DNA of 64,000 bases from Psammoneis japonica (taxonomy: Eukaryota). Below, piece after piece: positions 1-27,879 of this stretch. Below the pieces are notes generated by a model. The model searched no databases, was not told the origin of the DNA, and saw nothing but the letters and a program-made list of their open reading frames with translations. The DNA lies in the NCBI GenBank assembly GCA_008632985.1, contig QPGO01000117.1, positions 1-64,000 of the forward strand, given 5' to 3'. A program made the translations under genes and the position numbers. How positions within the stretch are numbered: position 1 is the first letter of the stretch; every line of letters starts with the position of its first letter.

Positions 1-1076
1 TGCAGCAGGCTGCTCCCATCAAGTTTCAAGGAGAAGAGGCAAGCCAAGGCCAGCTGGCCTGGTCTGGACCCTCCATTGACATCTTCCTGTTGCTGCCAAC
101 CACCAGCACAACCCACTGCATTGTGACAGCCCAAAAAAGAGCAGCCATCTCCTGCCATGCTGTGCAGGGAAGCTTGGGCTTGGCAGATCAACTGTGTGTG
201 TGCTGCCAGAAGATTGACTTTTTTGACTGCAGGGTCACCCAAAAGGGGTTTGGTGTTGTGCAGAAAGATAGATCCCACTGGGCCTGCTCCTGTGTGCACC
301 TGTGCTGGACTCAGCCAATGCTGAGCACCCTTGCAGCCCAGCAGCAATGAAGCCCTCCACCAAAATGTCTGCCAAAACCTCACTGTGCCACATCTGTGGT
401 CTGTGGCAAGTTGAGATGCTGGACAGGAATTGACCTGGGTGTTTCTCCACTGGCCACATCGACAAGCTGTGCCAGCAGCAAAGGGAGTGGTGCAGCAGTG
501 GACAAGGTTTGTGGCACAGTTGTGGCAGTGGCAACTGCAGCAACCACTGATCCTGAAGGCATGGCAACAGACACAGCCAGGTTGTGCCAGCTGGAAGAAG
601 AAGTGCTTGCTCCCAAGGATGGAGAGAGCTGACATCTGAGACTCTGTGGAAGGGGAAAACAGCAGCGCTGAGAAGTGCTCATTCTGGTCTGGCACAAATG
701 ACCACAGAAGAAGCAGTTGGGCTCACATGACTCACCTGTTGCATCTAGCCCAGGTGCCACAGTGTGTTCCTTGGCTGATCCCAGAGCAGGTGTGCAGCTT
801 TTCACTCACTCCACTTGCTGTGTCAGTTGTGCCCCCTCACTGGTTTGTTGTGCTTGGGTGCCCTGCACCCCATTGCATGGGTTTCACTCTTTGCTGCTGC
901 TGGCTGCTGCCCTCCCCACTTGCCTGCAGGGTGGTGCTGGCGTGACCCATCATTGTTGAGATTGTCATGTCCCTTGGCACTCTTGTCATCTCCTCTCAGT
1001 TTGCTGGCACCTGCGCCCTCTTCCCACGTGTTTTGAGCTCCTTCTTCCACCTGACAAATGCTGTCTCTCAAGCTCT

Positions 1077-1104
1077 TGTGTGTGTGTGTGTGTGTGTGTG
1101 TGTG
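1077..1104. repeat. (TG)14 microsatellite
   Basis: Perfect TG run read directly. Confidence 0.95.
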
Positions 1105-1257
1105 GCTCTTTCCTGTCTGAAGACACAAGGTGGGCTTGGACACCTGTGCTGCTCTCCTTGCCACATGTTCACACCAGCGCACACACAAAAACATGCCATT
1201 TGAGATGTGCTGTGAGCAGGTGTTGCCACGACAAATGCCACCTTGGGCCATTGTGCA

Positions 1258-1426
1258 TTACGGACTAGCGGTGTCGGGACAATCTAACGGACATCTAGGA
1301 CAGATGACAATCATGTGCTAGATGAGAAAGAAAGTGAGCAAAGGAGAGATCATCGGATCTCTCCATGCTGTCCATGCTAGTCTGTCCGACACAAGGGAGT
1401 GTGCTCCCCATCTCGGATGTCTGTCA
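1258..1426 (-). repeat. 3' LTR of the Copia-like element
   Basis: Matches 3762-3930 except at 7 TA/TG/CA dinucleotides. Confidence 0.92.
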
Positions 1427-2040
1427 CCTTCCCCTGATGAGCAATGCAATGCTCAACAAGAAAGAAAGAGACGATCCGAATAAAAAGAGAGGACCAGAAC
1501 AGCAAAGAACAAAAAAGAGCACCAAAAGAAATGGCCAAGACTTGGTCCGCAAACACGACAACAATCAACGACAACATCCCAACAAGCGACGAGCATGTCG
1601 GGAACAAAACATCCATCCCGCGCTCAACGCATCGGTCTTCGACAAAAAATGTCAAAGGTGGTTCCCAACAAATCTTTTGGATAAATTGAGTCGTGCACCA
1701 AAGAACAATTTTGTCAATCCAATGACAATCGACAGCAAAGAGACATTCTGGCGAGTCACCTGTCGCCAAAATCATCGGAAGAGATGGGGCCAAAAATGGA
1801 AATCCACCATGGGAGGATGCGGTGAAAATGAAGCAATGGCAATCCACCTGACAAGCCAATGTTTCTACCACCAAATGTGTCGCCCCTGAAAAACACATTG
1901 GACAAAACAAGCACATCATAAAGTCGCTCAACGTCGGAAGAACAGTGACGTGTCGTAGGTGAGCACCGCACGGCGTTCAAATCATGGTCGTCAAGTGCGG
2001 TTTCTTGGTTGAAGGTTGAATTCTCAACAGCCTGATGCGC

Positions 2041-2370
2041 TTCCTCTGCGCTGTAGGAATCCCTCCCATGATCAAAAAGCACAGGGTCATCATCAGGGAT
2101 GGTCGACAGGTCGGGAGTGCTAGAAAAAATGCCACTCGACACCACAACGGTCTTGACAGCGAAGGAGGAAAGAGGCGACACACTGGAAGAGTTGGTGTGA
2201 TGATCAATCGTGCACACTTCCTCTGCACGACATTGCTCCCTCCTTTGATCAGAAAATGAAGGATCATCATCAGCGATGGTGGACAGGTCCAGAGTGCCAT
2301 GAAAAGTGCAAATGGACACGACAACGGTCCTGACAACGGAGGAAAGAGACGTGACAGCAGAAGGCAGTAA
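2041..2370. repeat. Diverged internal tandem duplication, unit about 177 bp
   Basis: ttcctctgc...catcatcagNgatggt...gacagg...acaacggtc...ggaggaaagag occurs at about 2041 and about 2218. Confidence 0.75.
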
Positions 2371-2667
2371 GACTCCGTGGTCCTCTTTCATGACTGCCCT
2401 GCTTCTGTTGGTCTTGCTCGGACAATGGAAAGAATGGCGGCATCGTGTGTCCGAAACTGACGACGGCCGAACCAAAAATCCGAATGCGAATCAACTTGAC
2501 AACCAACAGAGTGCTGGCGGCATCCGCAAGTGTCAGATGACGGCGGGATGTAGGTGGCAAGCAGCTTGGGTGTAACCTTGGTGAGAGAGAGCAGTCCATC
2601 CTTGAGGTGAATGTGGCCCTTTTTGCATGGAACAACAGAATGGCCCGAAACAAAAAACTTTGGGGTC

Positions 2668-3558
2668 TCAAGCAGGCAGGCATGGACGTCGGCGGGAAGC
2701 ACTGCCCGATTTGGCATGAATTGCAAGGGATCCAGCACCAATGGCTGTAGATGGCTTACCCACCGGTTCCACAACAGACATGGCAGACTTGATGTTCAAA
2801 GAACTGTCATCCGCAGGGTCCATCCGAGAGTCCACAGCGAGTGCATCTTCAACACGAGACACAACAGCAGTGTTGTAGCTGCTGGCAGTAGAAGCGGGAT
2901 CTGGGCACAACTTGGACTCAGTGTGTGCATTAGAGCTCGAAATGCTCCTCAATCCATCAATCATGGCTTGCCCACACCCGTTTGGACCAGGCAAATGAGT
3001 TGCCAAGGCCTTGGCAAAGTCTTTGGGAGCAAGACCTGCAGCAGCAACCGGAGGGGATGCAGAACTTGAAGCAGTCGGTGGATCTGGGTGCGGATCATCG
3101 GAGATGTCATCCCAGCAATCACAACGCCGAAAACGAGGGCTGAAATGGAAACGTAGAGTCCCAACATGTGCATGCATGGTGTCGTCGTTCTCTGAGATCG
3201 CCTTGATCACAGTCTTCTGAAGAGCACTGAGGTTCAGGCGAACCGGGGAGCCTTGAGGGGTGGCTGCAAAGAGAGGAGCCTTTTCAATGATCGGTCCGAT
3301 TCGTGTGAGATCTTTAGTCAGGACAGCTTCAGGGATGACAAGATTGTGAACGATCTCATGTCGGAGGACAGTGACAGCATCGCTCTTGAGGCCTTGAGGG
3401 GCAAATCCATCCAAAAGATCTTCAGGAGCAGGGACCTCGTCCGAATGAAGGGTGTTCAGGAAAATGTGGGCATCGGGCAAGCGATTGTGTGGGCTGAATT
3501 CAACCCGCATCGTCTTGATCTTGGTCAAATCGACGGCGTTTTGATTTTTGTTCACCAT
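2668..3558 (-). pseudogene. Internal ORF of the LTR element (gag position, no recognisable domain)
   Basis: 296-aa ORF starting about 200 bp downstream of the PBS, in element orientation, nearly Tyr-free. Confidence 0.45.
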
Positions 3559-3761
3559 GGTTGCGCGGGAAAAAAAATCAAATTCCTGCGCAGAGCTCTG
3601 GCATGTGTTCTACGGTGGTCGTTTGATCACAAATCGAGAGGTGAAAAAACAGCTGTGACAATGATGACGATTTCAACGAAGAAAAGGTCGCCAAATCACA
3701 CAACAGGTGCTGCAGCAGAGGAGCACAGAGGAAGAGGAACAGCGCACTGCTGCTCATGACC

Positions 3762-3930
3762 TCACGGACTAGCGGCATCGGGACAATCTAACGGACATCT
3801 AGGACAGATGACAATTGTGCACTAGATGAGAAAGAAAGTGAGCAAAGGAGAGATCATCGGATCTCTCCATGCTGTCTGTGCCAGTCTGTCCGACACAAGG
3901 GAGTGCACTCCCCATCTCGGATGTCTGTCA
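3762..3930 (-). repeat. 5' LTR of the Copia-like element
   Basis: Direct repeat of 1258-1426, followed on the minus strand by the PBS-like motif. Confidence 0.92.
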
Positions 3931-4618
3931 GTGCATGTGCATCATCATTTCACATCTGAGGACATGCAGTGAACATGACCCCACATGCCCCCCTTGCATC
4001 TGCACGCAAGACCACACCCTCAAAATGTGCACACTGGGGTGCTGAGATGTGCGCTGAGTGGGTGCTGCTGCGCTGTGTCAGTGGACTCGAACACTCTTGC
4101 ACCAACCTGGCCTCAAACACTCTTGCACCCACACCATTTTGACCACAGGTGCCATTGCTTCTGTTGCAGTTGCTGCTCCAGTGAACACTCTGGAGAACAA
4201 TGGCGAGCTGTGAGCCACAGATGAGAGGGCGCTGTCTCTGCCACTCTTTTTCTTGCTGAAAAAATGCAAAAACACGATGTCACTCCCTCCCAGCTGCCCC
4301 CCAAAACACAGTGGGCACAATGGAGTGAGTCACCACACAATTTTAGAAAGCCTGTTGATTGCCGCATCTGCTCATTTCTGTCGTACATTGTCAATTCTTG
4401 TCACCATGGCGTGATTTGCTCAAAAAAAGCGCGAAAGTGTGGTGTCTGTTGGTTGCCAGCAGGTTGTGTGCGTCGTTTCGAATTTCACGAGGTCTGTCTC
4501 CTCTTGTCACAAAACCTCGCGCGCCGGAAATCTTGCCTGCTGTTTTTTTCTTGCGTCTCGCATCTCGCTCGGTGCCTTCGTTTGCATCTGTTGTTGCCCA
4601 TTTCTCAAAGAAAGCATC

Positions 4619-5386
4619 ATGTCCTCCGGTCTTGTCAAGTGTGACTGCATCGAGTGCCAGTCTGGGATGGCAATGCTGGATCCTGTGAATGGCATGCATG
4701 TGGACTTTTGCCAGAACTGTGGCCGTGCCTGTTGTTGCGGCTCCGGACCAACCCATGTGTCCTGTCCCTGCTGTCATCAATGCCAACAAGGAAAGTGTCT
4801 GGAAAAAGAAGATGCAGAAGAAGAAGAAGCAGAAGTCATTGAGCCTCCCAAGAAGAAACAGAACGTCACCAAAAAGGCGACCACTCCCAAGATTCCTCTG
4901 GCGGAACAGTCGGAGATTCGCATGGTGCGCGCCTCGTCGCAGCAGGGTGAGTTCTTGGCCGAGAATGTTCTGATCGACGACAATGGCAAGACCTTTTGGA
5001 AGTCAGAGCCTGTGAAACGAAAAGACCGCAAGGAACAGTGTGTGGAATTCCAACTGGCGCCCGACAAGAGTGTGCGCCGTTTGGGGTCGGTCTCCGTGGA
5101 CGAGACACGCCAGGTTGGACTGTCGGACTTTCGAATCGACTTTAGCGAGGATGGAACATTGTGGAAGCGTGGCCACTCTCTGTGGGGAACATCGTCGGCG
5201 GGGGACGGCGTGCGTTCCAATCATGATCTTGGAAACATTGTGGCTCGCTCGGTCAGGATTGTGTGCAAGAAACCAAGATCGTTCAACTCCGGAGTTGGCT
5301 TTGCGTTTGTGCAGTTCAATCGTGTGGCCAAAATGAGGGAACCAGGTGGCATCCTTTGTGATGAAGAAGAGAGTGGTGACTGTTGA
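4619..5386 (+). CDS. Protein with a C-terminal galactose-binding/discoidin (F5/8 type C)-like domain, probably TA-eroded
   Basis: ATG at 4619. Motif pattern RASSQ...AENVLIDD...TFWKS...EQCVEFQL...DFRIDFSEDGTLWK...ARSVRIV. No Tyr in 255 aa, with Cys/His at expected Tyr positions. Confidence 0.55.
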   Translation: MSSGLVKCDCIECQSGMAMLDPVNGMHVDFCQNCGRACCCGSGPTHVSCPCCHQCQQGKCLEKEDAEEEEAEVIEPPKKKQNVTKKATTPKIPLAEQSEIRMVRASSQQGEFLAENVLIDDNGKTFWKSEPVKRKDRKEQCVEFQLAPDKSVRRLGSVSVDETRQVGLSDFRIDFSEDGTLWKRGHSLWGTSSAGDGVRSNHDLGNIVARSVRIVCKKPRSFNSGVGFAFVQFNRVAKMREPGGILCDEEESGDC

Positions 5387-5770
5387 GCACTGCAGAACGT
5401 AACTTGTTGCCCAACTTAGTTGCCATCACGTGTGCATGACAGCCAGACCAGTGGCAAATGGGCCCAAAACCTAACGAGGATCTCTTAGACAGTGCACCAG
5501 GGCCCTCGGTCTGTCCTCCATGGCGACAGCTCCTGGCATGTCATGTGTTTCAGGCGCGTGAATGGATGGCTGAATGTGAACACGTGATGTTCGCCTGCCG
5601 AATGAGACAAGGACCGAAGCAACGTGAGTCACTCATTCACAGCGGCCTTTGCTGAAAGATGGATGATTCCAAGACAACACAGAATGCAGAAGTGGGGCGT
5701 CTGCTGAAATGGTTGCTGCAGAGTGCAAGTGCTGCTGTGCTGTCATTTAAAGCACCCACTTCAGTTTGAT

Positions 5771-7215
5771 TTAATTTGCTCTCCAGTGGAGATTCCAAAA
5801 CTGGGAGCAGCCGAACCCAATCACCACCACGGCCACAGCAACAGAAAGCTGCGTAACCAACCAATTCTTCTTTTCACAGGTGTCTTGGTCGAGATTTCCA
5901 TCCAGGCATCGAACAAAGTCGCGGCTCGAGTCATCGTGCTTTCGCATTTCGTCCACTTGGCTTCCCATGGGGGCGCACTTCATGATCATCCCAAGGATCC
6001 AACACTCAAACGCATTGGACGAGTTGACGCTCTTGCCTTGGGATCGGGCTTCCTTGACAAGCTTCTTCATGCCCTCGCGACGAGCTCCCCAGTCGTAGCA
6101 TGCAATGGCTTCTGCTGGACGCGCAGCCAGCTCGGCAAGTTTGGTGGCACAAACGCAGGCATCGGTTGTGGCACAATTCGTTCCTTGTCCGAGATGAGGA
6201 GACTGAGGATGAGCAGCGTCCCCAAGCAATGCGACCAGCTTTCCGGGACTCGAGCAGGGCAAGTCAACACGAGGAAGGTCAAAAATTGCAGCCTTGGTAA
6301 TCTGAGATGCGGGTGTCTCTTCCATCACTTTCATCATGACGGAGGACAATGGCGTCCCCTTGTCCTTGAGGGATTGCAGCAGTGCTGCCTTGGACTCATC
6401 CGTAAGAATTGCTCCTCCTCGGCAAGTCAAGTCTTCCGCAGTGCTGCCGGTTGGTCCATCGGCGGGTGAGCCAAGCACCCATGGAACCGTGCCATCTCCT
6501 GGTGAGATGAAGAATGAACCAGGTTGCTTGCCAGCACCCAGCATCCAAACAAACGAGTCACCCTTGAAGCTTTGCATGTCCTGGATGGCCTCCGTCGTGT
6601 CACATCTGCCCCAGCAGCACGTGACACCACAGTGTTCGAGAGGATCACCATCTTCTCCCTCGTCCTTGAACAGGCAATGTCGAATCTTGGAATGAACACT
6701 GTCGCAGCCGAGAAGGCATCGGCCCACAATCGTCGAACCGTCAGTCAAGTTGACCGCCACGTGTTGCTCGTCTAGATCTTCGGAAAAGGACTCGACCGCC
6801 ACACCACACTTCAACCAGTTCGCTTGGCATTCTTCTGACGCAAGGTCGAGAGCAGCGCGTTTTGCAACTGGGCTCGATGCGCCGATCCACAGCCCGACGA
6901 CAAGGCTTGAGGCATTTCAATGTTGCGGACCAACGTGCCTTCCATCGTTTCCATGTAAAAACCAACACAGTGTTTCAAGAAACCGTCCACAACCGACTTG
7001 GACAATCCGAGGCGGTTCTTCAAAATGTCAACCGTCGTGGGAGCAAGGTCAAAGCCAGCTCCGACATTGGAGCACAGCTTGCTGCGCATTGCCTTTTCCA
7101 ACACGACAAATGGAATGCCATGGTTCTGCAGAACCAACGCGGCAATCAATCCGCACGGCCCACCGCCAGCAATCAGAACGGGAGCAGACACAGGCTTGGG
7201 TGATGGCGACGACAT
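5771..7215 (-). pseudogene. FAD-dependent monooxygenase (aromatic hydroxylase/zeaxanthin epoxidase-like), frameshifted and TA-eroded
   Basis: Motifs VLIAGGGPCG (GxGxxG), LLGCDSVHSKIR (DG motif) and LLGDAAHPQSPHLGQG (GD motif), plus a C-terminal TM helix. Frameshift near 6842. Only two Tyr seen. Confidence 0.85.
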
Positions 7216-8091
7216 GGGCGAAGAGAAAATGCACCTTGCAGACAGTTGCTGGAAACTTTTTGTGAGAGCGGTGCCATCCGAAATTGTGAGGGGAGACACC
7301 GAAAGGGAAGACTCCATCCGCCTTGAAAGAATCGACGATCCGCCTTGAAGGGCTTCGGAACGGACAAGAACAGAGCTGTTGGCTGACGCATGTCATGATG
7401 ACAAGTGTCATGCTTCGGCAGCCTGCCGACTTTGTCATTTGGTCACAGGAAGAACCATCAACAATCAAAAGCGAAAAATGAATCCGCAGCCCCATGCTGG
7501 ATGCGCATCCGCCTTGAAGTCTTTTTGGAACAGAATAACCGAGAACCGTTCACGAATGACGTCAGTCTTGATGGGGGCTCACGGGCTCACCTACCGACAA
7601 CGCACCAACCATAGCTAACTACGACTTCCGCGCGCTGAAATAGCATGTCTCTCTTGCTTCTGTTGAGTCTAAAACCACTTTCGTGGATTACAGAACACTC
7701 TTATTCAATTCCATAGGAACATAGAAACCAGGAGAATGCACATTAGGTGCATCGTCCATCAGGGAGAAACAGCTTTCGATGTGATTGAGATATTGGTAAT
7801 ATCTCTTTTGGCGCATTTGTAATTCTAATTGATAGGACTATGTTTTAGAGGCTAACATTTTGTTGAGTGCAGTCATATCCCTGGTACTTGAAAACAGTAG
7901 AAGAGAATTGAAGCCGTTCCTGCTGATTAATGCGTACTACGCTCCCGGATAGAGGCTTGTGTGCCATCGAGAGAGCCAACTAGAAATTTTTGAGACAAAC
8001 CCCCCACAGCAGCAGTAGTAGTACAGCTGAAATGCCAGTTACATTATCAAGTTAATCTCTATAGCTCCTAATAGCTCTAGAGAGAGTACAA

Positions 8092-9555
8092 CTATGATTG
8101 TGCCTTTTGTCTAGGTGCCGGATCCCAATACCCCTTCCAATCTCCACCGCCAAGAAATTTGTACAGTCGCCGATTGTAAGGCGCATAAAAGTCTTCCAAC
8201 ATTTGTCGCGTTGTCGCATTCATAGCCATGGTGTAATTGCTAACCACCTTGTCTTTCTTGTCAGTCAGTTGGTGGTCCGGCAAATTCAAAAACTTTAGAA
8301 CCTTTTCATATTCCTTGTCCACATTCTTCTTCAAGTCTTCGGATCGAATCACTAAGATTTCCTTTTTAGGATCCCGTCCAACCTCCTTCATGGCTTGGAA
8401 CCAATGTCGCAATTGCATTTCATACATACCACGCCCAATCGGTCCCTCATGAGCCAGTCGCAAATACTCGGTCCACGCTTCATCTTCTTGGGGCGATCCG
8501 GCAAATTTGTTAAAGTTCACCTTGTTCCAATCATGCACGAGTCCGGCTTGCTTCATGAATTCAAAATCCTCTTCAATCCATCGCTCAAAGGACATTTTAA
8601 GATTGACACGCCGCACGGCATAGGCCCAATTGGAATACGCCCGATCGACGGGATTCCGCAACACCACTAGCAACTTGACCCATGGACAGACACAGAGAAT
8701 GCGTTGCGGAAGCATGGTGGAAAAGAACAAGTATCCCGGCGTGCCGTCAAAGGAAATGGACTTTTTGTTTTCTTCCAATGCCTTGTGATGGTAGTCAAGC
8801 GCATACATGTGTTGCCGTGCGGATTGGACCGCCGTTTTGCGGCTTGCCGTCACGTAATTGCCACGAAAGTTCTTGTTGAGAAAGAATTGTAACTCCTTGG
8901 TACGAGCGGGGATGACGGACGGGTGTTGTGTAATATAAGACGCGAGCGACGTTGTACCGCTTTTCTTGGCACCCGGCAATAAAAAGTAGGGAGCTCGCAA
9001 TTGCCAGGCATTGTCGCCTGTGGGATACCACTCGGCACCCTGCAATTCACAATACCGTTCCACAAAGGTGTCGTTGCCTGTTCTTGTAGAAGTAACGTTT
9101 GAACTATTCGTAACGTCAATAGCTGATGGCTGATCTTTTGTATCGGTTGTTGGCAAAGCATTTTTCGATTCCAATTCCGGCAGTTCCGAACGAGGCTTAT
9201 CGTCAATTCTGTGTTTCTTTTCTCGAAGACTCTCGAGTTCGTTGCTTTTCTCATCCTCTGGCGGTTCCTTTTCAGTCACGTAACTTTGCTGTTTTTCATT
9301 CATATTCTCTATTATTGTTTCTGTTTGTTTCGTCGGTTTCTTTTTTTCTATTGTCATTTCGTTGCTTTTGTTTTTCAACACCACTTTGGCTGGGTCACGG
9401 ACGAATTGAGAATGTCCCATCACAATCAACACCAAAAAGGCAAAGAAACATGTGATTTTCAAGCCACGATGGTGTGCCGCCATACTTGGTACATGATGAT
9501 CATTGCATGTCGTGTTGGACAAGAACAGCGGTTTCATCATCATCCTCGGGCACAA
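8092..9555 (-). CDS. Type II membrane sulfotransferase (heparan-sulfate 3-O-sulfotransferase-like)
   Basis: 5'PSB GAKKSGTTSL, 3'PB LRNPVDRAYS, N-terminal TM, C-terminal LEDFYAPYNRRL. Confidence 0.92.
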   Translation of the reverse strand: MCPRMMMKPLFLSNTTCNDHHVPSMAAHHRGLKITCFFAFLVLIVMGHSQFVRDPAKVVLKNKSNEMTIEKKKPTKQTETIIENMNEKQQSYVTEKEPPEDEKSNELESLREKKHRIDDKPRSELPELESKNALPTTDTKDQPSAIDVTNSSNVTSTRTGNDTFVERYCELQGAEWYPTGDNAWQLRAPYFLLPGAKKSGTTSLASYITQHPSVIPARTKELQFFLNKNFRGNYVTASRKTAVQSARQHMYALDYHHKALEENKKSISFDGTPGYLFFSTMLPQRILCVCPWVKLLVVLRNPVDRAYSNWAYAVRRVNLKMSFERWIEEDFEFMKQAGLVHDWNKVNFNKFAGSPQEDEAWTEYLRLAHEGPIGRGMYEMQLRHWFQAMKEVGRDPKKEILVIRSEDLKKNVDKEYEKVLKFLNLPDHQLTDKKDKVVSNYTMAMNATTRQMLEDFYAPYNRRLYKFLGGGDWKGYWDPAPRQKAQS

Positions 9556-9805
9556 ATCACAAACTTATTACGCCATGGCCGATGCTGCAGAAAAAAAAAA
9601 AGTACTTGGCGAAGCGGGCAAAATTCAAATGACATGCGGACGGATGACGGACAGGACATTGTGTATGACGTTTGTACTGGAAGACTGCCAGGAATTATAA
9701 GTATGTAGAATCCTTACCAAGCTTTACGTAACGAGTCATTTAACGGTATTTAACGTCTAACGTCCTTCGAAAAGTCACAAAGTCACGCCATATTTTTTTC
9801 TCACC

Positions 9806-15919: not shown

Positions 15920-16096
15920 AGGTGCAAATCATCATGATGCTCTGCATGTTTCTTGTCCTCGCACCACAATGACGAAGCCCTGATGGAAGCCCAACTTTGC
16001 AAGCTTTTCACCTGAAACTGTCAAGAACATCCACTGAAATCAGAAGTTCCATCAAACAGGGTTTTTCTTGTTCCACATTGACACATCTCAAACATG
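15920..16096 (-). pseudogene. Decayed copy of the neutral ceramidase last exon plus 3' UTR
   Basis: GTRKTLFDGTSDFSGCS*QFQVKSL vs GTRKILFGGTSDFSGCSRQFQVRSL at 44761-44850. The stop TAA has become CAA and a CGA has become TGA. Similarity continues into the 3' UTR. Confidence 0.85.
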
Positions 16097-17001
16097 ACTT
16101 TGCAAGGAATGCAGGCAATGGCAAGTTCCTTGTGTCCTTTGCAAGCAGATGATTCCCCAACACATGGCAACTCTGTGCAAAGATTCTTGAGGGTCAATGG
16201 CTTGGTTCTTTGGTCACCTGTGGGCTGGTCTTGGAGTGCTTGCAAGAGCACATGGCAAAGAGCCAGGCACCAATGTGTGTTGCTTGGTTTTGGGGCAAGG
16301 CTCAGAGGAGTGAGGCGGTGATCACTTTCTGCCTGTTGCTTCTGCTTTCCATCTTGATTCTTGTGGCCTCAGCACTGGCAGAGCAAAAGGCGCAAGGTGC
16401 ACCCATCCTCATCCAGTCATGGGTCTTTCCAGTTGTGAGATCCAAAGGTGGGTGCCACATCATCCATGGCAGCTGTGATGCCCCCCCTGCCACCAGTGTT
16501 TCAAATTGTTCAGCCAAGTGTCAGCCTTCCTGCATGGCAGCTGCAAATGCTCTGAGGGTGTGAATCTGATGTTGTTGGGCAATGGTGAGCTTGTCCATGA
16601 ACAGGTGGTCTTTGAGTTCAATTTTGCCAAGAACAACTTTTCCCAGTGGGTGAAAGCTGTGTCTTGCTTGTTCTTGTCAGTCTCTTTGGCATTTGCTTCT
16701 TGATGGGATCCTTTGGTGTCAAGGAGGAGGTTGGTTGGGAAACAACTTCTCTGGGCAGCAGCAAGATGCAAAAATTGTGATGAAGCAAAAGGGCAAGTGT
16801 GTCATCAGACAAGTTGCTGTCTCTCAACAGGCAGTTGCCAACAACATTCATTTTGTCTCCAGGAGCTGTTGGCTGAAGGATTGACTGTTGGCACCCATCA
16901 TGACAGATGCAAACTTGCTGGCAATTTCTGTCTGCTCTGGGTCAGTCTCTTTGTCAAAGTTGGATTTGCACAGCCAGCCCATGGTGGCAGTGCTGTTGTC
17001 C

Positions 17002-17049
<48 letters not shown>
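17002..17049. repeat. Compound (TG)n(AG)n microsatellite
   Basis: Read directly. Confidence 0.95.
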
Positions 17050-17050
<1 letters not shown>

Positions 17051-17599
17051 ACAAGAGAAAGGAGGGAAGTTGCCTTTGATGCAAGTGATCCACACACACA
17101 TGACGCTGGTGATGAATTTCTTGGTGTTGAGGGTGAGACTGTGAACCAGGTGATGGGGGAGCTCCCAACAATGTGCTCAACCCATTTGGACATTGCAGCT
17201 GCCAATGCAGTGTTCTGATGTGCATCCAATCAGCAGACATGGGCGGGTTTGTGGCAAGTGATCAGGCTCAGGTTGATGCCTGGGCATGGATCATGCTGAG
17301 TCAGCACAGATGGCATGAGAAATGGAAAGCATGCAGGACAATGTGTCCAAGATGGTTCAGGCAACCAACAAGCTGTTCAATCTCCTTGAAGGCACATCCT
17401 CCCCTCTTGACAAGTCTTTGGAGTTGCTTGGACCAGGCAATGAGTTTGTGTTTGGGAAGCACAGTGCGTGCATGTCGTTTGTTCGACAGTCAGCCAAGGG
17501 CTGTCCCAAGCACTTCAAGATGGTCTTTGGTGCAGAGCTTCTTCAAACAAGTGAGATCACCCCTGGCAAAATCTTTGTGAGGGTGAGCTGGTTGGCCAA

Positions 17600-18060
17600 T
17601 GTGTGAATTCCCGGAAGTGCTGTTGCTCTTCTCTTCATTCAATGTTGTCGTCAATGTCAGGTGCAGCTGTCACTGTGTTGTCAATGCAGACCTTGACTGT
17701 GCCCATCATGTTGTTTAGAGGAATGTTGACTGGCAAGTTGAGAGCTGGTGTGAATGGCACATCATTGCTTTCAAAGCAGTGAGAAGGAAGGTGATCAAGT
17801 GTGGGGTTGTGGGGGACTGGGTTCCAGGACTTGCATTGAAGGATGTCATTGGACAGACCACACACTGATTTGGAGAGATGTCACCCCACAGATTTGGGTT
17901 CAGCTTGCCTCTGAAGGCAAATCATCTGAGCTGACAATGGATTGCATGGTGCTGTGGCACTTTTCAAGTGGCCTTGGTGACGGGCCAACTTGTGGTCAAT
18001 CTTCTGCAGCCATCTCTTGGCATTTGCGTTGGGCTGTTCCTTGGGTTGCAAATGGGAAAT
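17600..18060 (-). mobile_element. Reverse transcriptase relic of a DIRS/Ngaro-like (YR) retrotransposon
   Basis: Across frames: KIDHKLA..GHL, PNLWGDIS..CGLSNDILQC, and VKVCIDNT..APDIDDN (a mutated YIDD motif). Confidence 0.55.
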
Positions 18061-18181
18061 CCCCAAAAATGACTGATTGTGGTCATTGCATTGACTTCTG
18101 CTCAAACAATGAAGATCACAGACAAGTGCAAAAGCAATTGCATCAAACAGTTTGTGACCCTTTCTTTCAAAATGACTCTTG

Positions 18182-18547
18182 TGCAGTGTGCGACTGTTGT
18201 GTGCACATGTGTGATCATGCGTTATTTGCACGTCAATCGTGCCACAGTCGTGGATGCGTGCGAAGGACAGAACGATCACACAGAGTTGATCGGAAGTCGA
18301 AAATCGCAAATACGATCGATGGACGATGCTGACATCTTATGTGTCAAAAGCAATCGCATTCGGACCATCTGTTGTCACGATTACATTCTCCGAAAGGCCT
18401 TTTGTCTGTAGAAGCAGCACAGAAGCTTTAGGCCATTGAGAACTCGTTCGGAGAAACCAAAATCAAAGAGCAAAATTTAATCTCATAATTTCCACTTTTT
18501 GCACACTGTTCTGCTTTCGTTTGCACTCGTTCTTCGAGCACAGTGCA
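18182..18547 (+). repeat. 5' LTR of the Gypsy element
   Basis: Ungapped match to 22454-22819. Confidence 0.95.
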
Positions 18548-21500
18548 TTGTGCACACACACCACAGAAGGTAAAAAGCACGGAAAATGAAAATTTTAACT
18601 GATGTGCCTTTGTAAATTCTTCTACAAACAGGAGCGAATCGCATCAGTTCTGCTGGAATCGATTTCCGAGCGGAAGAAGCTCAATCCGAGCAGCACCTCA
18701 AGATGGAACGCTGTTTTTCGTCTGCCAAACGAGAGGATTCGCTCTAATGCGGTCTGTTCCAAGCACCCAAGGATCAAGGGCTCTCAAGCACACCGCATTG
18801 TCAAAAAATCTACACCAATTCATGGTTGCAGAGAATGCAAGTTCCGAGTCGATCAGATCCGAGAAACACGTCTGCCATGCAAGGAGAGACTGTTGGAGAG
18901 TTTTTTGAGACCGAATCGATGATCCTCGAGTCCAAGGAGCAAGAGGGAATCGTTGGAAAGTGCCTCAAGCGTCTCACAACTCATGTCCTCTGAGGAAATG
19001 CACTTCAGAATCAGGGAAATTATTTTCGAGACGACCTGAAGAAACCAGAGCCGCTCAACAGCAAAGAAGCCTCTGACAGACCCAAGAGGTCAATGATGAG
19101 AGTCTGCATGACCCTCAGATCGATTCTAAGTCGAATCTAGCGGGAAAACGAGCGCTGAGTTGTCAGCCATCACTCGCACCGCAAGGATGGCAGCATCAGC
19201 CTGCTGTCCAAAATGTTGAACTGCTGGATCACACCCTTGACAAGCTGATTGAGGTTTGAGTCGTCCAGAGGTCGGCAAGGACGTCTGTGACAAAAAAATT
19301 TGTCAACTCAGGCTCTGATGGCGCAGTTGATTCCACAATCAAAAAGGTTCCAATTTTGGTTCCAAAAATGGTCTCCTGTGTGGTGCCAGAACAATCCAAA
19401 GTGAGTGCAAGGTCCAATCTTTCAACAAAGAACACCTGCATCACGGATTCAGGCCATTCTGCAAAAGAACTGGCGAAAGAATGCCGTGGACATGACAAAT
19501 GTGATCCAAAACGGCACAGTTCAAATGGCAATCGCACGCGGTCGCATCGCGATGACGACAATGCCTCTCGCAAAGAAGAGTTGAATGCTGTGGTTGTCCA
19601 AGCAGTTCAAAAAAATGCTCAAAGCGAGTTCTTCACACAAAGATAAAAAGCGCAAGAGCAAAAATTAAGACTCTAAAACGCTTGGCGAACAAAACCATCA
19701 ATTTAGAAAAAATTGACCCAATCGAGTCCGATCAAAAATTTGTGCCGCTCGAGGAGTGTAACGCGTCACAGGACGTCTGGAAACCCAGAAAAAGCATCAC
19801 AGTGTGTCACACGAGTCCTGTTCTCGCTGTCCACATGACTGCTGCTCTGAGAAAAGCAAAAAACAAGCTTCCACGTGTTCTCTCGACAAAGAACATCGTC
19901 AGCCCATGATTTTACGCAAAAATCGTGCGAAAGTTGAGAACCAAAACATCCGCCACCAAAAAACTTGGGAAACCAAGGGTGAGCTCTTTACGACTGACAG
20001 CAAACACCGAATTCAGTTCTCACTGCGCGAATTTAAGACTTGCTGACATTCAAACAGCACATGTCAACAACACCAAATGCCCTTCAAGGTCGAATGATGT
20101 GATCATGGGACGCGACTTAATGTCCAGTCTTGCAATCACACTAGACTGCGCAATTGAAGAAATCAAATGGGAATGAAGCAATTACCCTATGAAGAATGTT
20201 GATGCACTCTTCGACACAAAAATGTTCCAGCTGAATGCCGATCACATTGAAAAATGTCACACAGTGAATGGAGTTAACAACGAGACCGATGGTTCTCGAC
20301 TCACATTGTCACGCCGTCGATTCTAATCAAGTGACAGCTACAGCAATGCATCTAAACCAAAAGAAGATAAACCACTCAGTCTCCTTCTTATGAGGCTTAA
20401 AATCCTTTTGAAAAAGTTCATTGGACAAATGAATGGGAAGAACCAGTGGATCTCACCATGAAAAATCTGACGCGATCACGCGACGTGTGAGAACCTTCTC
20501 CTATCATAGTCTTTGGAGGCGTCCATTTGAAAGGAATTTAACCAATTATGAAAGATTGAAGATTTAAAAATGAAGTTGCGATTCAAACATGGAACACCAC
20601 GATGTAAAATCAAGAAAGCACACGTCGTGCTCACATCAGAATAATGCCGTGGGGGAAAACGAGTGCCATAGACTTCCAATAAGAATCTATAGAGCCCCAG
20701 ATATTTTCATACAACACATGAGCGAACTCATGACAGGTTTAAAGTTGTCAGAACGACCATGAATGAACGTTTGTGCCTGACAGAAAGTAACTTCAAAATG
20801 TCACCTGTACAAGAAAAACTTGAAATGGCATTCATACGACTAGAACAGTCGCTTTGAAGGTTAACAAACAAAAGTCCTTCACTACTTAACTTGAAAAATA
20901 TTATCAAGACTTCCACACGTAACGGCACACATCTGATTACAAAGAAAATGGAGGCGATTCCGGCAATCGCAACATTGAGCAAAACGTAAAGAATATTACG
21001 ACAGCTTGTCGATGTACGTTACTGCTATAAAGACATGTAGTCTCAATGATCTCCTGTACATTTCTAGCCAAATCCACCTCAATAAAGGTCAAACGGCAAA
21101 AGGACAAGTACAGAACGAAAAGTCTCCGAAAATATGGAGCGCATCATATCAAAAACTATGTTATTATCAAACATGGTATTGTAATATTCAAGTCACAACG
21201 GAAAAAGAACTTCTGTCCATAGTGGAAACACTTAATAATTCCCGGAATATACTGTTTGGCCAACAGATTATTATATATACGGTTCATAACACACAACGGA
21301 CATAGTCATGCGTTGACGACTTAAAATAAAAAATTTCAGTCCCGAATTAAAATACATCAAGGACAAGGCGAACGTCGTCGCAAGAGCGATCAGCCGACTT
21401 ACTATAAAAAAATAGAACCTATGGAAAACCTCAGCACAGAAGAGTTAGCTGAAAAGGTCCTACCAAAATCCTACGACAATGTCTTTCCGTTAAATTGCAA

Positions 21501-22453
21501 AGTTCTCGATACTGAACAAAACGGGATAAAGACATTTCCTCCAAATTGTCGGACGCGACATATCATACGAACACTTTTCGTCGAGGCGAGCGAGATCAAA
21601 AATGCTCATGTCATAAGGAAAAAATCGCCTTATTTAGGGACGGTTAAAGAAAAAATCAGTGACAGATTGGTATACATTATACGTACCTACTTCACATTGG
21701 CAAAAGACAATCTCACAGCACCCGTACGATTGTAATGTACGATGTACGAGGCAAGACATAAATAACGTCACACGAGATGTGCCAAAGATTCAGAAACAAA
21801 ACACAAAAATGGACATTATTTATCCGAATAGTGCACAAAAGCAGTGCCTTCGGAATGACGAAATGTCACCGGCATGTCAAAAAGAAACGTCCAAATAACG
21901 ATCAAAATCCAAAGGAAAGATGGTTGAAGTAATAAAGAAATCCATAAAGGAATCCATAACCATCCCAGGATTATCAAGACGAAATGGTTAGAAAATATCC
22001 TTGACCATCGTTAATTACTTACGATGCGTGGAAGTGCAGCAGAGCAATGTGGCACATATAAAGTTAGCCAGCCAGAACTACACGAACTCCACAAGTAAAG
22101 TGAACGCCATAATAATTAAAAGAGCGTACATTAAGTGCTGGGCACAATGCCAGGTACAATCGACATCATGAAAAACACTGCAGGACAATTGGTCCTTGTG
22201 TTCATGTCAACAAAGAACGTCAACGAGAACACTCGACACAATGCTGTGCACACATGCATGTAAAGTGAGAAACAAACGATGTCACTCTCACAAGACATTC
22301 GGAAATTGGAACGGCCCCACATGGCCCACACAAAACGACAACAGTCATCACCAATGGCACAATGCAGTGAACGTGGAGACATTGTTGACACTGTCAATGT
22401 CCGTCGAATGGTCCACTTAACAAATGACTCTAATGTGCAATTGGGGAGGCGAG

Positions 22454-22819
22454 TGCAGCACGCGACTGTTGTGCACATGCATGTGATTGCACATCATTTG
22501 TGTGTCAATCGCGCCACAGTCGTGGATGCGTGCGAAGGACAGAACGATCACACAGAGTTGATCGGAAGTCGAAAATCGCAAGTGCGATCGATGGACGATG
22601 CTGACATCTCATGTGTCAAAAGCAATCGTGTTCGGACTGTCTGTTGTCACGATTGTATTCTCCGAAAGGCCTTTTGTCTGCAGAAGCAGCACAGAAGCTT
22701 TGGGCCATTGAGAACTCGTTCGGAGAAACCAAAATCAAAGAGCAAAATTTAATCTCATAATTTCCACTTTTCGTGCACTGCTCTACTTTCGTTTGCACTC
22801 GTTCTTCGAGCACAGTGCA
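22454..22819 (+). repeat. 3' LTR of the Gypsy element
   Basis: Ungapped match to 18182-18547, preceded by the PPT. Confidence 0.95.
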
Positions 22820-22859
22820 CTTGAATGTGTGGACATTGCATTTGGACACTTTTGCTCAT

Positions 22860-23070
22860 TCTCACTCTGGAGCCAATTTGTCCCACTCTAGAGCTGTTTG
22901 ACTCTAGAGAGAATGTCACACTCTAGAATCTTGGGTTCTAGAATGTCACACTCTAGAACCATTCAATTCTAGAGTGGCACACTCCAGAACTGCTCAACTT
23001 CAGATTGTCCTGTTGTGCAGCCATTTGACTCTAGAATGTCACACTCTAGAACTGCTCAACTCCAGATTGC
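22860..23070. repeat. Minisatellite with TCTAGA every ~15 bp (~30-bp higher-order unit)
   Basis: Repeated tctagaatgtcacactctagaac, with TCCAGA/TCTGGA variants. Confidence 0.8.
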
Positions 23071-26019
23071 AACGGCTGCTGTTGAGTTTTGCTTGCATCT
23101 GTGGCAGCTGATGGCACCATGGGTTCCAGCTGATGGTGCCATTTTTTTTTACAGAGCTTGGCAACAACCAGGATCAGATTGCAGCTCAGCCAAGATGTGG
23201 TCCATGTTTGGGCACATGCTGCCATTTTTGAGCAATTCTTTCAAGCTGTTCCCATGGTGTTCACAAACCCAAGATTCCAGCATCTTGACAGATGTGACAC
23301 ACTTGAACATGCAACATCAGGCTCTCATCAATTCAGGCTCAAAGACACTGTTGATGAAGGGTCTGGGGAGATGTTGCATGCTCAGGAACAAGAGCCACAT
23401 GGGACACAACATGGCAGCTTCATGTCTCCCCTTGTGTGCAGTGTGCCAAATGACAAATGAAGCAAAATTGAGCATGACATCATGTGCTGGCTTTTGACAA
23501 CCTCAAATTTCACCCAGGTCATTGGTGCCAGGTGCATTGTCCAGAAACAGCTTGTCCTTTTCAAAGCACAAATCACTGATTCCTGGAGTTCAAATGAGAA
23601 CTTCATCAAAATTTCCATTCTCCTGTGCGCAAGTGCAAAATCAACTTTGCCACTGACAGCCAAGGGGAGATGTTCACAAGCAACCACTTGATCTGCAACA
23701 GATGACTTGCCATGCTGCTTCATTGAATTTGGTGTGAGCCTCTGAAAGGATTGATTGAGTCCTTGGCAAAGCAGTGAAATAGAACATGTGTTCCAGAAAG
23801 GAATCTAAACAGCAAATTGCTCTCATTCAATGGTGCTTTTGTTGCAGCATCGACAGTTGTGAGGACAGCAATGCAACATCCAATCAGAGTCAGAGCCACA
23901 AGAACTGTCAAGACAGAAAAGCAGTGTGCAGGTGGGAGAAACAGTGCTTCATCACTCTTGACAAGATTGCAAAACACAAGCAAGTGCATGAGCCGGCACC
24001 TTGCAACAACAGAAGCCCAGACATGAGAAAAAGCACCCAAGAACTGACAAGGCAGCTGGCCCTGCGGATTTGGAGAGATCCTTGAGGACATCTCAACAAC
24101 TGTCAATCACTGTCTGAGATGAGCAACAGACAAGTCAGTTAAAATGTGTGCACACTTCAGAGTGGCTGCATCTCAAGCATGCAAAACAATTTGCGCTCAC
24201 CCCATGGATGCCCAAATCACCTTCCATTTCCAAAAGCTCTTCTTTTCCATTTTTGACCAACTCCATCATGTGTCTGTGTAGATCAGAGTGCACCAAAAGC
24301 ATGAGATCTGTCGCACACAGGCCAGCTTGCAATTTCAAGACACGCTGCCAGATTCAGAGTGACCATCCATCAGATTTCTGCTTGACAGAACAGCAGCACT
24401 GAAAGGTAGAATCCTTGCATCCATCCCATTCCCAACAATGGCGAAGCCAATGTTTGGTTGACATGTGTGGGGAGCATTGTTGGTGGATGATGTCACTGCA
24501 CAATGTGCATTGACAACATCAGGGCTGCTTGCAGGAAAAGCCTGCATTTGACCCCACTCAGCCTGCAACATGCATGGCACCAGAGGTGCAAGAATTCTCA
24601 TCCACAAAAACAGCACAAGGAATGCTGTGAACCCCAGTGCACAACCACAAATGCAAGACAGCCCACTCTGCTTCAAATGGGTGCCTTGACATTTCCTGTT
24701 GCAACAGCACAAGCAATGGTCAGTGGAGTCTGTGAGAATGTTTCTTTGATGTGCAGACTTCCAAGCCACAAACAACAAACAGCAGAGAAAACAAGCTCGC
24801 GAGAAGGTGCAAGGCACCTCTTTGCTTTGCCAAAATGATGGATGCAATGCCAAGACAATTTGCACTTGACAAACTGACAGACATTTCCCATTGCAATTGC
24901 ACAAGTGCTGGCAGACAGTGGAGTCCACCATGAGAACATTTCTTTGACATGCAAGCTGTCCAAGAAGCCACAAATCACAAAGCGCAGAGCAGACAAGCTC
25001 ACAAGACATGCACGCCATTTTGCTTTGCTGAAATGATGGACATGACCAAGCCAATTTGCACTCGAGCAAATGGCAGTTGCAACAGTGTGGGACCCCTTTG
25101 AAAACATTTGACACCAGGAAGGCACAATTGCCGGGGAACATTCATCCTGAGAGATGCCATTGCTGAAATGCCTGACTGCAAACACAAAGAAAAAAGATGA
25201 AGGTGTGAGCACAAACAGCAAATTTTCTCCATTGCCCACAGTGCTGCTGAACTTTGCTCACCACCACCAACAAAGCAGATGTCACAGATTGGAAAGGAAG
25301 CAGTGGGCTGAGGTGCCGCTGCTCTGCTTTGGACACAGAGCTGTCTGAAGTGCTTTTGACATGTCATGCCATGCTGTTCTGCACCACTTTCTCCTTTGTA
25401 GAAGTTCTTGCAGGTGCAGCATGTTGGGACAGGCAGAAGTGCCAGCATTGTCCACCTCATTGCATTGTTTTGTCATTCGTGTGTGTGCTGAGTGCGTGAA
25501 TGGTGTGCGGCTGACAACAGACAATTCACACACCTCTGGCATGGCACAAGGTGTCATTGCTCCCAGACTGGAGTTTGCAGCAACCAGAACACCAATGGCG
25601 AGTGCAAATTTCAACAAAATTCCTCTTTCAGACCCTCTCTGTGAAAGAGAAATGAACTTAGAGTGCAGATGGCTTTTTTCTCAGCTCACAACATTTTTGT
25701 GCTTCATGCTTTTGGCACAACATTGTTTTGCCAAAAACAGAAGCACAAAATAAAAAACAACATTGCTGACCCCTCACAGGCATGAGGAAAATTCCGGTGG
25801 TGTCAAGAATGGATGTGTTGACAGTGACAGCTGCTGAACTGCTGCAAAAGGGCCTCAAGCTCACCTGTTGTGACTGTGCACAGCACACAGCACCAATGCA
25901 TTTGAAGTGTCAAAGACTTGAAAATTGCACTTGGCTTCACCCAGCAGCCTTGTAAATCCTTGGCTTTGCTGGCACATTGGACGTTGGCCTTGTGATCTTG
26001 CAAGTGGACAAAAAAAACA

Positions 26020-26215
26020 GTTCTGGAGCAGAGATCATCTCAGTTCTAGAATGTCCCACTCTAGAGCCATTTTAATTCTAGAATGCCATGTTCCAGAGCT
26101 GTTCAATTCTTGAGTGTCACATTCTAGAGCTGCACAATTCCAGAGTGTCACATTCCAGAACTGTTTGATTCCAGAGTGTGCCACAATCCAGGCTGCATTT
26201 GTCCACTCTAGAACT
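26020..26215. repeat. Second TCTAGA minisatellite, same orientation as 22860-23070
   Basis: tctagaatgtcccactctagagc and ttccagagtgtcacattccagaac variants. Confidence 0.8.
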
Positions 26216-27879
26216 GCAAGCTGTCTCACAGAAGGGACAAATCATGCACAAACCAAACTCTCCCTTGTGATGCAACAAATGTCTTGCTTTTTGTTCCAAA
26301 TCATGACTTTTTTGTTGTTTGAGTCTCACAACAGTCTTTTGTCAAACCTGTGGATTGCCATTTCAGGTCATTTTGGGGGTGTTCCTGGAGGCAAAGGGGG
26401 AGCTGTCAGCTGCAAAAGAGGGGGAGAAGACAAGTGGCAAGGAGGAACTTGACCCTCTTGTTGTGTCTTCTGACTTGGTCTGTCTCTCAGAGCAAAGAGA
26501 AACTTGATCCTTTCTTCTTGATGGTTCACAATTTGGAGCTGACAGGGGGTTGCAAGGTGGAGCTTGATCTTCTTGTTTCTTCCTGGCATTTTTTGTCTTC
26601 TTCTTGTTTTGCAGGCAAGCTCACATGTGCAAGCTGTTCAGAGCTGGGGTGTCACAGGAAGAAGGTTTGGGCAGTGGACATGGTTGTCCACCAGAGGATG
26701 GGCTTCTGAGGCTTTTCCTTGAGGTTTTGAGTGGCTGAACTTGTGAGAGAGGCAATGCAGCAGCCCTTGACATGGAACTTGTCACAGCATTCTTGAGTGC
26801 CTTTGACTTTTGGCAAAGATTTGATGTTCAGGTGAAATGCCTTGCTGCAGTCTTTGCCTTGTTTGAGTTTCCAGGTGGGTCAGTTGACTTTGGCACATGA
26901 AAATTAAGTTCATTGAACATCACACACATGGCCAAAGGAGTCAACACACTGTCTGATCTCTGTGTCCACACCAATGTCATGCACCACCACATGCTCAACC
27001 ACTGTGACTCACAGGATCAACAAATCATTGGAGGAGACACCAAAAGAGCATTTTTTGATTTGCTGGATCAGGCATGAACTTCAGCGAGGCAATTGCTGAC
27101 CTCCTGCACAAATGGCACAATTCAGTGACTGGAGTCCAAAGCACACTGCAAAGTGTGAGAGTGTGCTGCCAGTTCTCCTGCCCAACCTTTGTGGTGGCCA
27201 CCTGTTGCAAGGAGAGCAATGAAAGGGGCAACATCAACTTTTGGTGGTTGGCTGAGGAACACTTTTTCTTGGCTTCTTGGGACTTCACACTTGGGTGAGT
27301 GGCTGCATCATTTCCAAGCATCTGAGGACACTGCTGCAGTTGTTGATGCAACTGCCCACATGCAGAACAGCAACCATGAAGTTGCTCTCTTGAGCAACAC
27401 CCTCCATGCAATGGGGGGCCAAATGATCTGTAAATCCTCCTGGGCTGTTGAGTGATGACCCCAGTCTTTGTTGCAAGAACCATGTGTGAGAGAGCAACAC
27501 AAACAATTCCAAATTAACAAGCTCCCCTTGTTCACAACAAAGTGTGGGATTTGTGCACTGACAATTGTCCATCATTTCCAACAACTTTCTGTGGGTTCAA
27601 ATCAAGAACATGTCATCCCAATGAGTTTTGCACCACTCAACAAGTTGACAACAAAGTGTGCTCCATTGATGTTTTCTGAGAACTGATGGACATTCAATCA
27701 GCTCTTGACTGGTGTTCTCAAATTCCTGTTTTGGGGTGTTTCTCTTTGACTCATCTCAAATCTTTGGTTTGCATGTCATTTCCACAGTTGAGTTTTGCCA
27801 CACAATCTCATTTGGAGCAATGTTGCTGCCACTGCATGGTTTGCATTCACCAAATCTCAATCAACTCCAGTTCTCTGTG

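Follow-up and report, generated by a model that had tools for sequence, protein, structure and literature searches.

TpA-directed hypermutation as the probable cause of tyrosine loss in two genes at a repeat border of the diatom Psammoneis japonica

We analysed positions 1 to 64,000 of contig QPGO01000117.1 from the diatom Psammoneis japonica (64,000 nucleotides (nt), the window in what follows), in which two neighbouring genes, a discoidin-like open reading frame (ORF A) and a flavin adenine dinucleotide (FAD)-dependent monooxygenase pseudogene, have lost nearly all of their TpA dinucleotides and nearly all of their Tyr codons. It is probable, in our judgement, that regional, TpA-directed A:T>G:C hypermutation overran these single-copy genes of diatom lineage at the border of repeat DNA. 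Comparison with other versions of the locus in one sample supports the conclusion that the hypermutation is recent and lies mostly on one haplotype.

TpA loss and tyrosine loss in the two genes

Within positions 4400–7590, we counted 14 TA dinucleotides over 3191 nt compared to 114.4 expected from the 35.8 per kb seen in unaffected DNA of the window (Poisson P = 1.9e-32). This segment is only part of a longer depleted block (Table 1), which as a whole contains 46 TA vs 272 expected. TG and CA are enriched where TA is depleted, and GC content is 0.52–0.55 within the block vs 0.43–0.49 immediately outside. For 4400–7590, rho(TA) is 0.081 vs 0.529 in normal DNA and rho(CG) is 0.823 vs 1.008, corresponding to losses of ~88% of TA and ~18% of CpG; an earlier sequence-only reading of this DNA had described CpG as kept here, and the measured values (0.82 vs 1.01) bear this out. 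The right edge of the block is abrupt, with 1 TA in 7401–7591 and 12 in 7601–7800 (200-nt counts, TA positions); the last isolated TA stands at 7536, and normal TA density resumes at 7592. By dinucleotide profile, DNA in the window falls into three classes: normal DNA (rho(TA) ~0.53, rho(CG) ~1.0), DNA in which TA and CpG are both depleted and TG and CA are in excess (1–1200, 16001–18000, and 23001–41000), and DNA depleted of TA that keeps CpG (~1200–7590), inside which both genes lie. The older blocks at 16001–18000 and 23001–41000 have rho(CG) values of 0.03–0.3.

The sole internal repeat of 1–8000 is a 167-nt element resembling a miniature inverted-repeat transposable element (MITE), which is present in two copies inside the depleted block and is high-copy, with a summed contig depth of 17914 in the bin 3800–3973 vs ~58 for the flank. 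Both copies retain CTAG and CTAA sites and have lost other TA. At five sites, one copy has TG and the other CA at the same dinucleotide, and at one further site TA faces CA. TG facing CA at the same dinucleotides indicates that an ancestral TpA was struck independently, on opposite strands, after each copy had inserted; the mutations thus arose in place.

A process that changes TA to TG on one strand and to CA on the other, across 7.6 kb or more at the edge of old repeat DNA, would have marked effects on coding sequence. Because Tyr codons are TAY, they become TGY (Cys) or CAY (His), and ATA, CTA, GTA, and TTA codons, as well as codon junctions at which T meets A, would also be struck. A:T>G:C changes at TpA cannot create stop codons, with a new TGA arising only from TAA, and frames therefore remain open regardless of function. 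Moreover, because TAA and TAG are removed and none are made, long open frames appear everywhere and ORF length is meaningless as evidence for genes here. The depleted DNA contains many long open frames, in all six frames.

We found no Tyr in the 255 codons of ORF A and 2 in the 480 codons of the monooxygenase (1/358 and 1/122), in agreement with the sequence-only reading, which had reported none and about two, respectively; Tyr contents of nine further long ORFs of the window are 0.5–4.0%. Cys accounts for 6.7%, 5.6%, and 3.3% of residues in the three affected frames vs 0.2–3.5% in the other long ORFs, the rise to 5.6–6.7% being that of ORF A and the C-terminal part of the monooxygenase. The affected frames have 0.4, 1.4, and 0.8 TA per 100 codons vs 6.4–11.9 elsewhere, and the depletion extends to all three codon phases.

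Relatives of both genes retain Tyr. The discoidin-like domain of ORF A spans residues 104–218 (PF00754, 33.1 bits vs a curated cutoff of 28.2), and residues 102–153 also score against PF01834 XRCC1_N (26.3 vs a cutoff of 21). A word-indexed protein search with ORF A gave no matches; an exhaustive HMMER search found 21 relatives, including P0041–P0046, and relatives in this family contain 2.0–5.0% Tyr. Against six aligned relatives, the conserved RAYCYGSGP has become RACCCGSGP and KEQYVEFQL has become KEQCVEFQL. ORF A has Phe at four further Tyr columns, and Phe is not obtainable by a TpA mutator.

Both parts of the monooxygenase match PF01494 (FAD_binding_3) above the cutoff (E = 2.4e-8 for the N-terminal part and 3.5e-9 for the C-terminal part), and the dinucleotide-binding GxGxxG region reads IAGGGPCG in the window, aligned to IAGAGPCG in the orthologs. 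Orthologs from a Bacillariaceae metagenome-assembled genome (MAG) and from Seminavis robusta are 50% and 45% identical, respectively. For the C-terminal part, 40 relatives were found, nine of which were aligned (P0001-5, 8-10, and 17), and Tyr contents in the family are 1.6–3.7%. At 12 Tyr columns, defined by at least 30% Tyr among the nine orthologs, the window has five Cys, two His, two Tyr, and one each of Phe, Leu, and Gln, whereas leaving out the orthologs one at a time gives 0–1 Cys or His in each. Changes from ortholog to window include RY to HC, KY..TCYWG to EH..TCCWG, DLPYSS to DLPCSS, SPYLG to SPHLG, TDAYV to TDACV, and RYAP to KCAP. The sequence-only reading had singled out four peptides in which Cys or His seemed to replace Tyr. 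Three of them, EHCGVTCCWG, DLPCSS, and EQCVEF, do fall on Tyr or aromatic columns of the relatives; the fourth, IRHCLF, does not, as orthologs have Ser, Lys, Ala, Gln, or Arg at its His and mostly Cys at its Cys, with Tyr in none.

The same reading had named Cys and His at these positions in orthologs as evidence against erosion; instead, the orthologs keep Tyr or another aromatic residue and have normal Tyr contents. Relatives of both genes come from diatoms and other stramenopiles (Seminavis robusta, the Bacillariaceae MAG, and Aplanochytrium), and the closest are from diatoms, not viruses. We rejected a natively low TA composition, given orthologs with normal Tyr. No orthologous DNA locus was found in metagenome contigs scanned with alignment A2 and then with P0041.

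Other versions of the locus in one sample

We aligned contigs of the DNA runs X1 and X2 to positions 3800–9000 at a likeness of at least 80%; both runs come from one sample, for which a search for sequencing runs listed three DNA runs and none of RNA, and the run kind, 'DNA?', is a guessed label. X1 differs from the window at 75 places, and at 60 of these the window has C/G vs T/A. Our classification covers the 40 best-supported differences, with 45 further ones beyond them. Among these 40, the window has TG or CA vs TA at 30 places, CA vs CG at 4, and TA vs TG at 1, and 5 differences are of other kinds; the four CpG-type differences run the same way as the TA-type ones. TA losses within this set are thus derived in the window in 30 cases and in the other versions in 1 (rough Fisher P = 2e-11). 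TG-vs-CA swaps between versions are absent from the same 40 differences, indicating that most TA losses are common to all versions. The unequal remainder looks like a further burst of mutation on one haplotype, and this polymorphism within a single sample supports the suggestion of the sequence-only reading that the erosion is recent.

Eleven Tyr codons are restored in the other versions, eight where the window has Cys and three where it has His (TAT or TAC vs TGT, TGC, CAT, or CAC), which is the codon effect anticipated from the window alone. In ORF A, Tyr-restoring alleles occur at 4731, 4737, 4754, 5040, 5174, 5358, and 5382, and Tyr in another version faces Cys in the window at residues 38, 40, 141, 247, and 255 and His at residues 46 and 186. 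In the monooxygenase, Tyr faces Cys at residues 101, 117, and 143 and His at residue 95. Further changes on the window side are ATA>ACA (Ile>Thr), the silent CTA>CTG, GTA>GTG, and TTA>TTG, and CTA>CCA, TTA>TCA, ATG>GTG after a T (Met>Val), and stop TAA>TGA. The last of these gave ORF A its stop, with TGA in the window and TAA in another version (change at 5385). The ATA>ACA and silent NTA changes, which the sequence-only reading had proposed to count, are present between versions.

TA-type coding differences comprise 17 non-synonymous and 6 synonymous changes, compared to a rough neutral expectation of ~64% non-synonymous derived from the TA phase distribution in normal ORFs of the window, and show no sign of purifying selection. 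At the 17 non-synonymous sites, the residue of the ortholog is found in the other version in 12 cases, in the window in 2 (ORF A residue 247 and FAD residue 174), and in neither in 3. Two of the CpG-type changes harm the window version, one by replacing with Cys the Arg of DLTRRGG that is invariant in nine orthologs. A still less mutated version is found in X2 at 4611–5354, where 12 of 14 differences restore TA and 2 restore CG, with 3 common to X1. Between 5358 and 5435, eight heterozygous TA-type differences occur in 78 nt, seven consecutive ones being of one strand type (window TG); a runs test by hand over 30 sites gave ~11 runs vs 15.7 expected, a weak hint of clustered, strand-coherent events.

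These contigs also bear on whether the pattern is a technical artefact, caused by base-calling or polishing errors at a modified TA motif, or instead reflects an unusual native composition or a foreign origin. Systematic errors at methylated motifs occur in some long-read assemblies, and the GC content of the block is above that of its neighbours. However, 86% of sampled 31-letter words of 4400–7700 are present in the k-mer contigs of X1, several of the contigs agree fully (0 differences) with the TA-free sequence, divergence among versions is directional with a flank identical in all, and the changes fall on conserved Tyr columns of diatom orthologs, the closest relatives of these genes being diatom and not viral. 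We regard an explanation of this type as close to negligible. RNA editing was rejected because the changes are present in assembled DNA and in contigs of runs labelled DNA.

Copy number, order of events, and site preference

Variant contigs have about half of the local depth (33.8 of 71.1 and 29 of 53.3), and the flank contig (7456–9000), which is the same in all versions, has a depth of 58.3 with 0 differences. Spans covered only by a variant contig have depths of 55.3 with 3 differences and 46.6 with 10, which by our own arithmetic match a contig running through heterozygous sites. Summed contig depth, which is not a copy number, is 39–89 over the block vs 58.3 for the flank. We found no second copy among contigs at a likeness of at least 80% or in the 64-kb window. 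These depths fit two haplotypes of one locus rather than a repeat.

Depth also bears on an account in which host genes were duplicated or captured, as a segmental duplicate or as transposon cargo, and the resulting block was targeted as a repeat, as in fungal repeat-induced point mutation (RIP), with the working parent genes untouched elsewhere. The frameshifted state of the monooxygenase copy, the two high-copy 167-nt elements inside the block, and the old repeat DNA that it abuts would all suit a duplicate, as would the 50–62% identity of the best database relatives, which places the gene set of this genome outside the databases. Erasing all TA alters only ~3.6% of bases, however, and a recent parent would thus be >90% identical and expected at the 80% threshold, yet no second copy was seen in the 64-kb window, summed depth is ~1x that of the flank, and the variant contigs are allele-like at about half depth. 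In addition, no viral or transposon domain was found by Pfam among the 8 ORFs of 1–4400. We therefore consider duplication or capture unlikely. The sequence-only reading had offered both possibilities, and the ~1x depth fits its first, spread of the mutator into single-copy genes, better than its second, a duplicated or captured segment.

The monooxygenase has no single intact reading frame, as its two parts are separated by a frameshift (Table 1), a feature that the sequence-only reading had not noted. An intron at ~6848 was considered in place of the frameshift and rejected because the ortholog alignment crosses the junction without extra residues. The sole contig that spans the junction shows the frameshift as well, with no gap, and has other-version alleles to either side of it. 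Being common to both versions, the frameshift must precede the latest TA changes, which fell on a monooxygenase gene that was already dead.

A frameshift that predates the latest TA changes is also what would be seen if the genes had been silenced or inactivated first, with the monooxygenase frameshift at the start and heterochromatin spreading over a dispensable locus, and had then lost TA as a passive and slow consequence. This sequence of events agrees as well with the TA losses common to all versions and the lack of TG-vs-CA swaps among the best 40 differences, with the partial loss of CpG (rho 0.82 vs 1.01), and with the four CpG-type differences that share the direction of the TA-type ones. 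The asymmetry of 30 vs 1 within the best 40 differences nevertheless favours episodic, allele-specific activity over a steady clock, and per target ~88% of TA is gone vs ~18% of CpG. Passive loss, which we hold to be quite improbable, differs from regional hypermutation mainly in the order of events.

The depleted blocks used for counting survivors (1–7590, 16001–19900, and 22600–41100) contain 123 residual TA, among which CTAG is 4.9x and TTAA 3.6x enriched, ATAT and CTAT are absent, and a purine follows the surviving TA in 103. At 22 of the 30 polymorphic sites, the base after the changed A, read on the strand of that A, is a pyrimidine (P = 0.008). Over 23001–41000, the predicted product reaches 33.6 vs 10.1 per kb, a comparison confounded by CpG loss (26.0 per kb). 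The data are suggestive of a T-A-pyrimidine preference. Such a preference, if real, would make TAY an ideal sense-strand target and would account for the excess of Cys over His. Survivors are also asymmetric by strand, with 40 RTAR vs 16 YTAY on the + strand (P = 0.0007) compared to 288 vs 309 in normal DNA, which could reflect a replication or transcription direction of the mutator.

Several points weigh against regional hypermutation of single-copy genes as set out here. Five differences among the best-supported 40 belong to neither the TA nor the CpG type. The evidence on copy number covers contigs of at least 80% likeness and the 64-kb window, and a diverged parent copy may exist elsewhere. 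X1 and X2, which are not independent samples, disagree at 11 of the 14 sites of 4611–5354, which means either that haplotypes are mixed within contigs or that there are three or more versions. The open frame of ORF A says nothing about function, because the process makes no stops, and spread into working genes is not supported for the monooxygenase, which is frameshifted in both versions. The window monooxygenase departs from its orthologs at 9 of 73 ortholog-invariant columns (12%; for example, CDGIHS to CDSVHS, DLTRRGG to DLTCRGG, and TDAYV to TDACV), the corresponding values being 0–8.8% for the eight orthologs that are closer and 22% for P0017; at 12% vs 8.8% for the closest ortholog, long-term decay of this copy is not evident. 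With respect to site preference, sites informative for a single strand are split 14 predicted vs 6 (P = 0.058), and gains in the CpG-keeping block were 10.5 per kb for the predicted product vs 9.5 for the other, a null result. Finally, targeting of a silent domain, considered below, is something that we infer.

Surroundings, comparable systems, and biological meaning

Table 1. Positions of the depleted block, the two genes, and neighbouring features in the window
Feature	Position	Strand	Details
TA-depleted block	1–7590	.	Extends leftward out of the window; right edge 7536–7592; rho(TA) 0.03–0.18 per kb
Older repeat-like DNA without TA and CpG	1–1200	.	1–1000: rho(TA) 0.04, rho(CG) 0.04; 0–1 CG per 200 nt
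167-nt MITE-like element, copy 1, partly mutated in place	1260–1426	+	93% identical to 3764–3930
167-nt MITE-like element, copy 2	3764–3930	+	Same orientation as copy 1
ORF A: Cys-rich N-terminus and F5/8 type C (discoidin-like) domain, 255 codons	4619–5386	+	PF00754, E 6.8e-8
FAD-dependent monooxygenase pseudogene	5771–7317	-	N part 6850–7317 and C part 5771–6847, in different frames; PF01494 on both parts
Frameshift, two extra bases or one missing	6848–6850	-	...HRAQLQNALL / DLASEE...; codon-by-codon reading
Unaffected flank: TA-normal spacer and sulfotransferase gene (8092–9564)	7592–9564	-	PF00685, E 5e-14

Across the TA-poor block, loss of CpG is graded and loss of TA is uniform. The stretch separating ORF A from the second MITE-like copy (3800–4400) has 3–5 CpG per 200 nt vs 5–18 in the genes to its right. 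Protein-like open frames occur on the minus strand at 1759–3609, within the part of the block that keeps CpG, and may represent a third affected gene; the ORF at 2671–3558(-) starts with MVNKNQ, and the ORF at 1759–2490(-) contains two repeats of ~45 residues (...VVVS..DLSTI.DDDP...). Neither a Pfam family nor a homolog was found for these two ORFs, and no Pfam family was found for the ORF at 6–722. Farther to the right, ORFs 18073–18411 and 22264–22752 encode near-identical peptides (...VNRATVVDACEGQNDHTELIGSRKSQ...), and a gypsy-like reverse transcriptase/RNase H fragment (...LLSIVETLNNSRNILFGQQIIIYTVHNT...) lies between them at 20979–21735, an arrangement that suggests a pair of direct repeats resembling long terminal repeats. 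TA is normal in the interior at 20001–22000 (rho 0.47–0.82), and 18001–20000 is TA-poor with CpG kept; this may be a half-mutated element.

So far, the sole description of the process proposed here is a 2026 preprint, which concerns viral inserts in Bigelowiella natans, and TpA depletion or hypermutation in diatoms was not found among the top-ranked literature matches. According to the main text of the preprint, 231 of 302 nuclear point mutations in mutation-accumulation lines fell in two integrated viral regions, nearly all being A>G or T>C changes, every one of which lay on TpA (Mettrop et al., bioRxiv 10.64898/2026.01.13.699255). The DNA struck there comes from integrated giant viruses and virophages, the larger of the two regions is silent and present in a single copy, only some lines are active, and an ADAT2-like adenine deaminase acting on DNA is proposed as the agent (10.64898/2026.01.13.699255). 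A word search of that main text found no mention of diatoms, tyrosine, or trinucleotide or downstream context. On this account, the two systems share an almost exclusive change of TpA to TpG or CpA, bounded regions, a single-copy target, and uneven activity, confined there to some mutation-accumulation lines and here mostly to one version. They differ in that viral inserts of a chlorarachniophyte were struck there, whereas genes of diatom ancestry and transposon-like DNA were struck here; in the extent of depletion, which is mild there (TpA at 3.3% vs 6.0% of dinucleotides) and ~8-fold here (14 vs 114); and in that mutation rates were measured directly there, a rate ~1000-fold above background being characteristic of the B. 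natans type, whereas our evidence is polymorphism within one sample.

Like the process considered here, RIP of ascomycetes acts in regional bursts associated with repeats, produces transitions at a single dinucleotide, damages single-copy genes beside repeats, and leaves alleles with many changes. RIP converts CpA to TpA by C:G>T:A transitions, which raise TpA and AT content, and creates stop codons. The chemistry here is the opposite, with TpA lost and GC raised to 0.52–0.55, and stops, which RIP makes, are not made by the TpA process. Leakage of RIP into neighbouring single-copy genes is described for the AvrLm6 region of Leptosphaeria maculans and for Neurospora (PMC2973834). There, leakage declines with distance from the repeat, whereas in the present block no gradient is seen and the edge is sharp, 3.6 kb past the nearest repeat copy.

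Decay of CpG likewise turns a palindromic dinucleotide into TG or CA and is seen in the older blocks of the window, but 4400–7590 keeps CpG (rho 0.82) with TA nearly gone, and the two processes are therefore separable. CpG decay results from deamination of 5-methylcytosine in methylated repeats. ADAR and the tRNA adenosine deaminases TadA and ADAT2 normally act on RNA, and the U-A-C at which TadA naturally acts would be consistent with the pyrimidine preference suggested for the next base. As with these enzymes, A is read as G and T or U is favoured before the edited A, whereas at this locus the genomic DNA itself carries the fixed changes, which are also present in contigs of DNA runs. For ADAR, a preference for a 5' U is noted in the B. 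natans preprint (10.64898/2026.01.13.699255).

By analogy with the proposal for B. natans, the agent at this locus would be an adenine deaminase acting on DNA, with a putative preference for A followed by a pyrimidine. Its target may be a silent chromatin domain, nucleated by repeats and ending where the sulfotransferase gene unit starts, and decay of CpG would proceed separately and far more slowly within that domain.

If hypermutation of single-copy genes is the correct reading, this locus offers a natural before-and-after pair, whose versions, found in one sample, are distinguished almost exclusively by TA>TG/CA changes, and gives the direction of the mutator, its site preference, and its consequences for proteins. 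The process would then not be confined to viral or transposon DNA but would rewrite host coding sequence without truncation, TA loss would be faster than and separate from CpG decay, and both the editing enzyme and the mark that designates the region would become testable in a culturable diatom. As a more tentative proposal, diatoms might possess an episodic, allele-specific DNA adenine-editing activity, perhaps TadA/ADAT2-like and directed at T-A-pyrimidine, that is aimed at silent chromatin domains rather than at repeats as such and that overruns genes at their borders. Were this so, full-length proteins with wholesale Tyr>Cys/His replacement would arise, providing both a route of gene loss and a source of abrupt protein change, and the occurrence of such editing in a rhizarian and a stramenopile would point to an old and widespread eukaryotic chemistry of genome defence, the mirror image of RIP.

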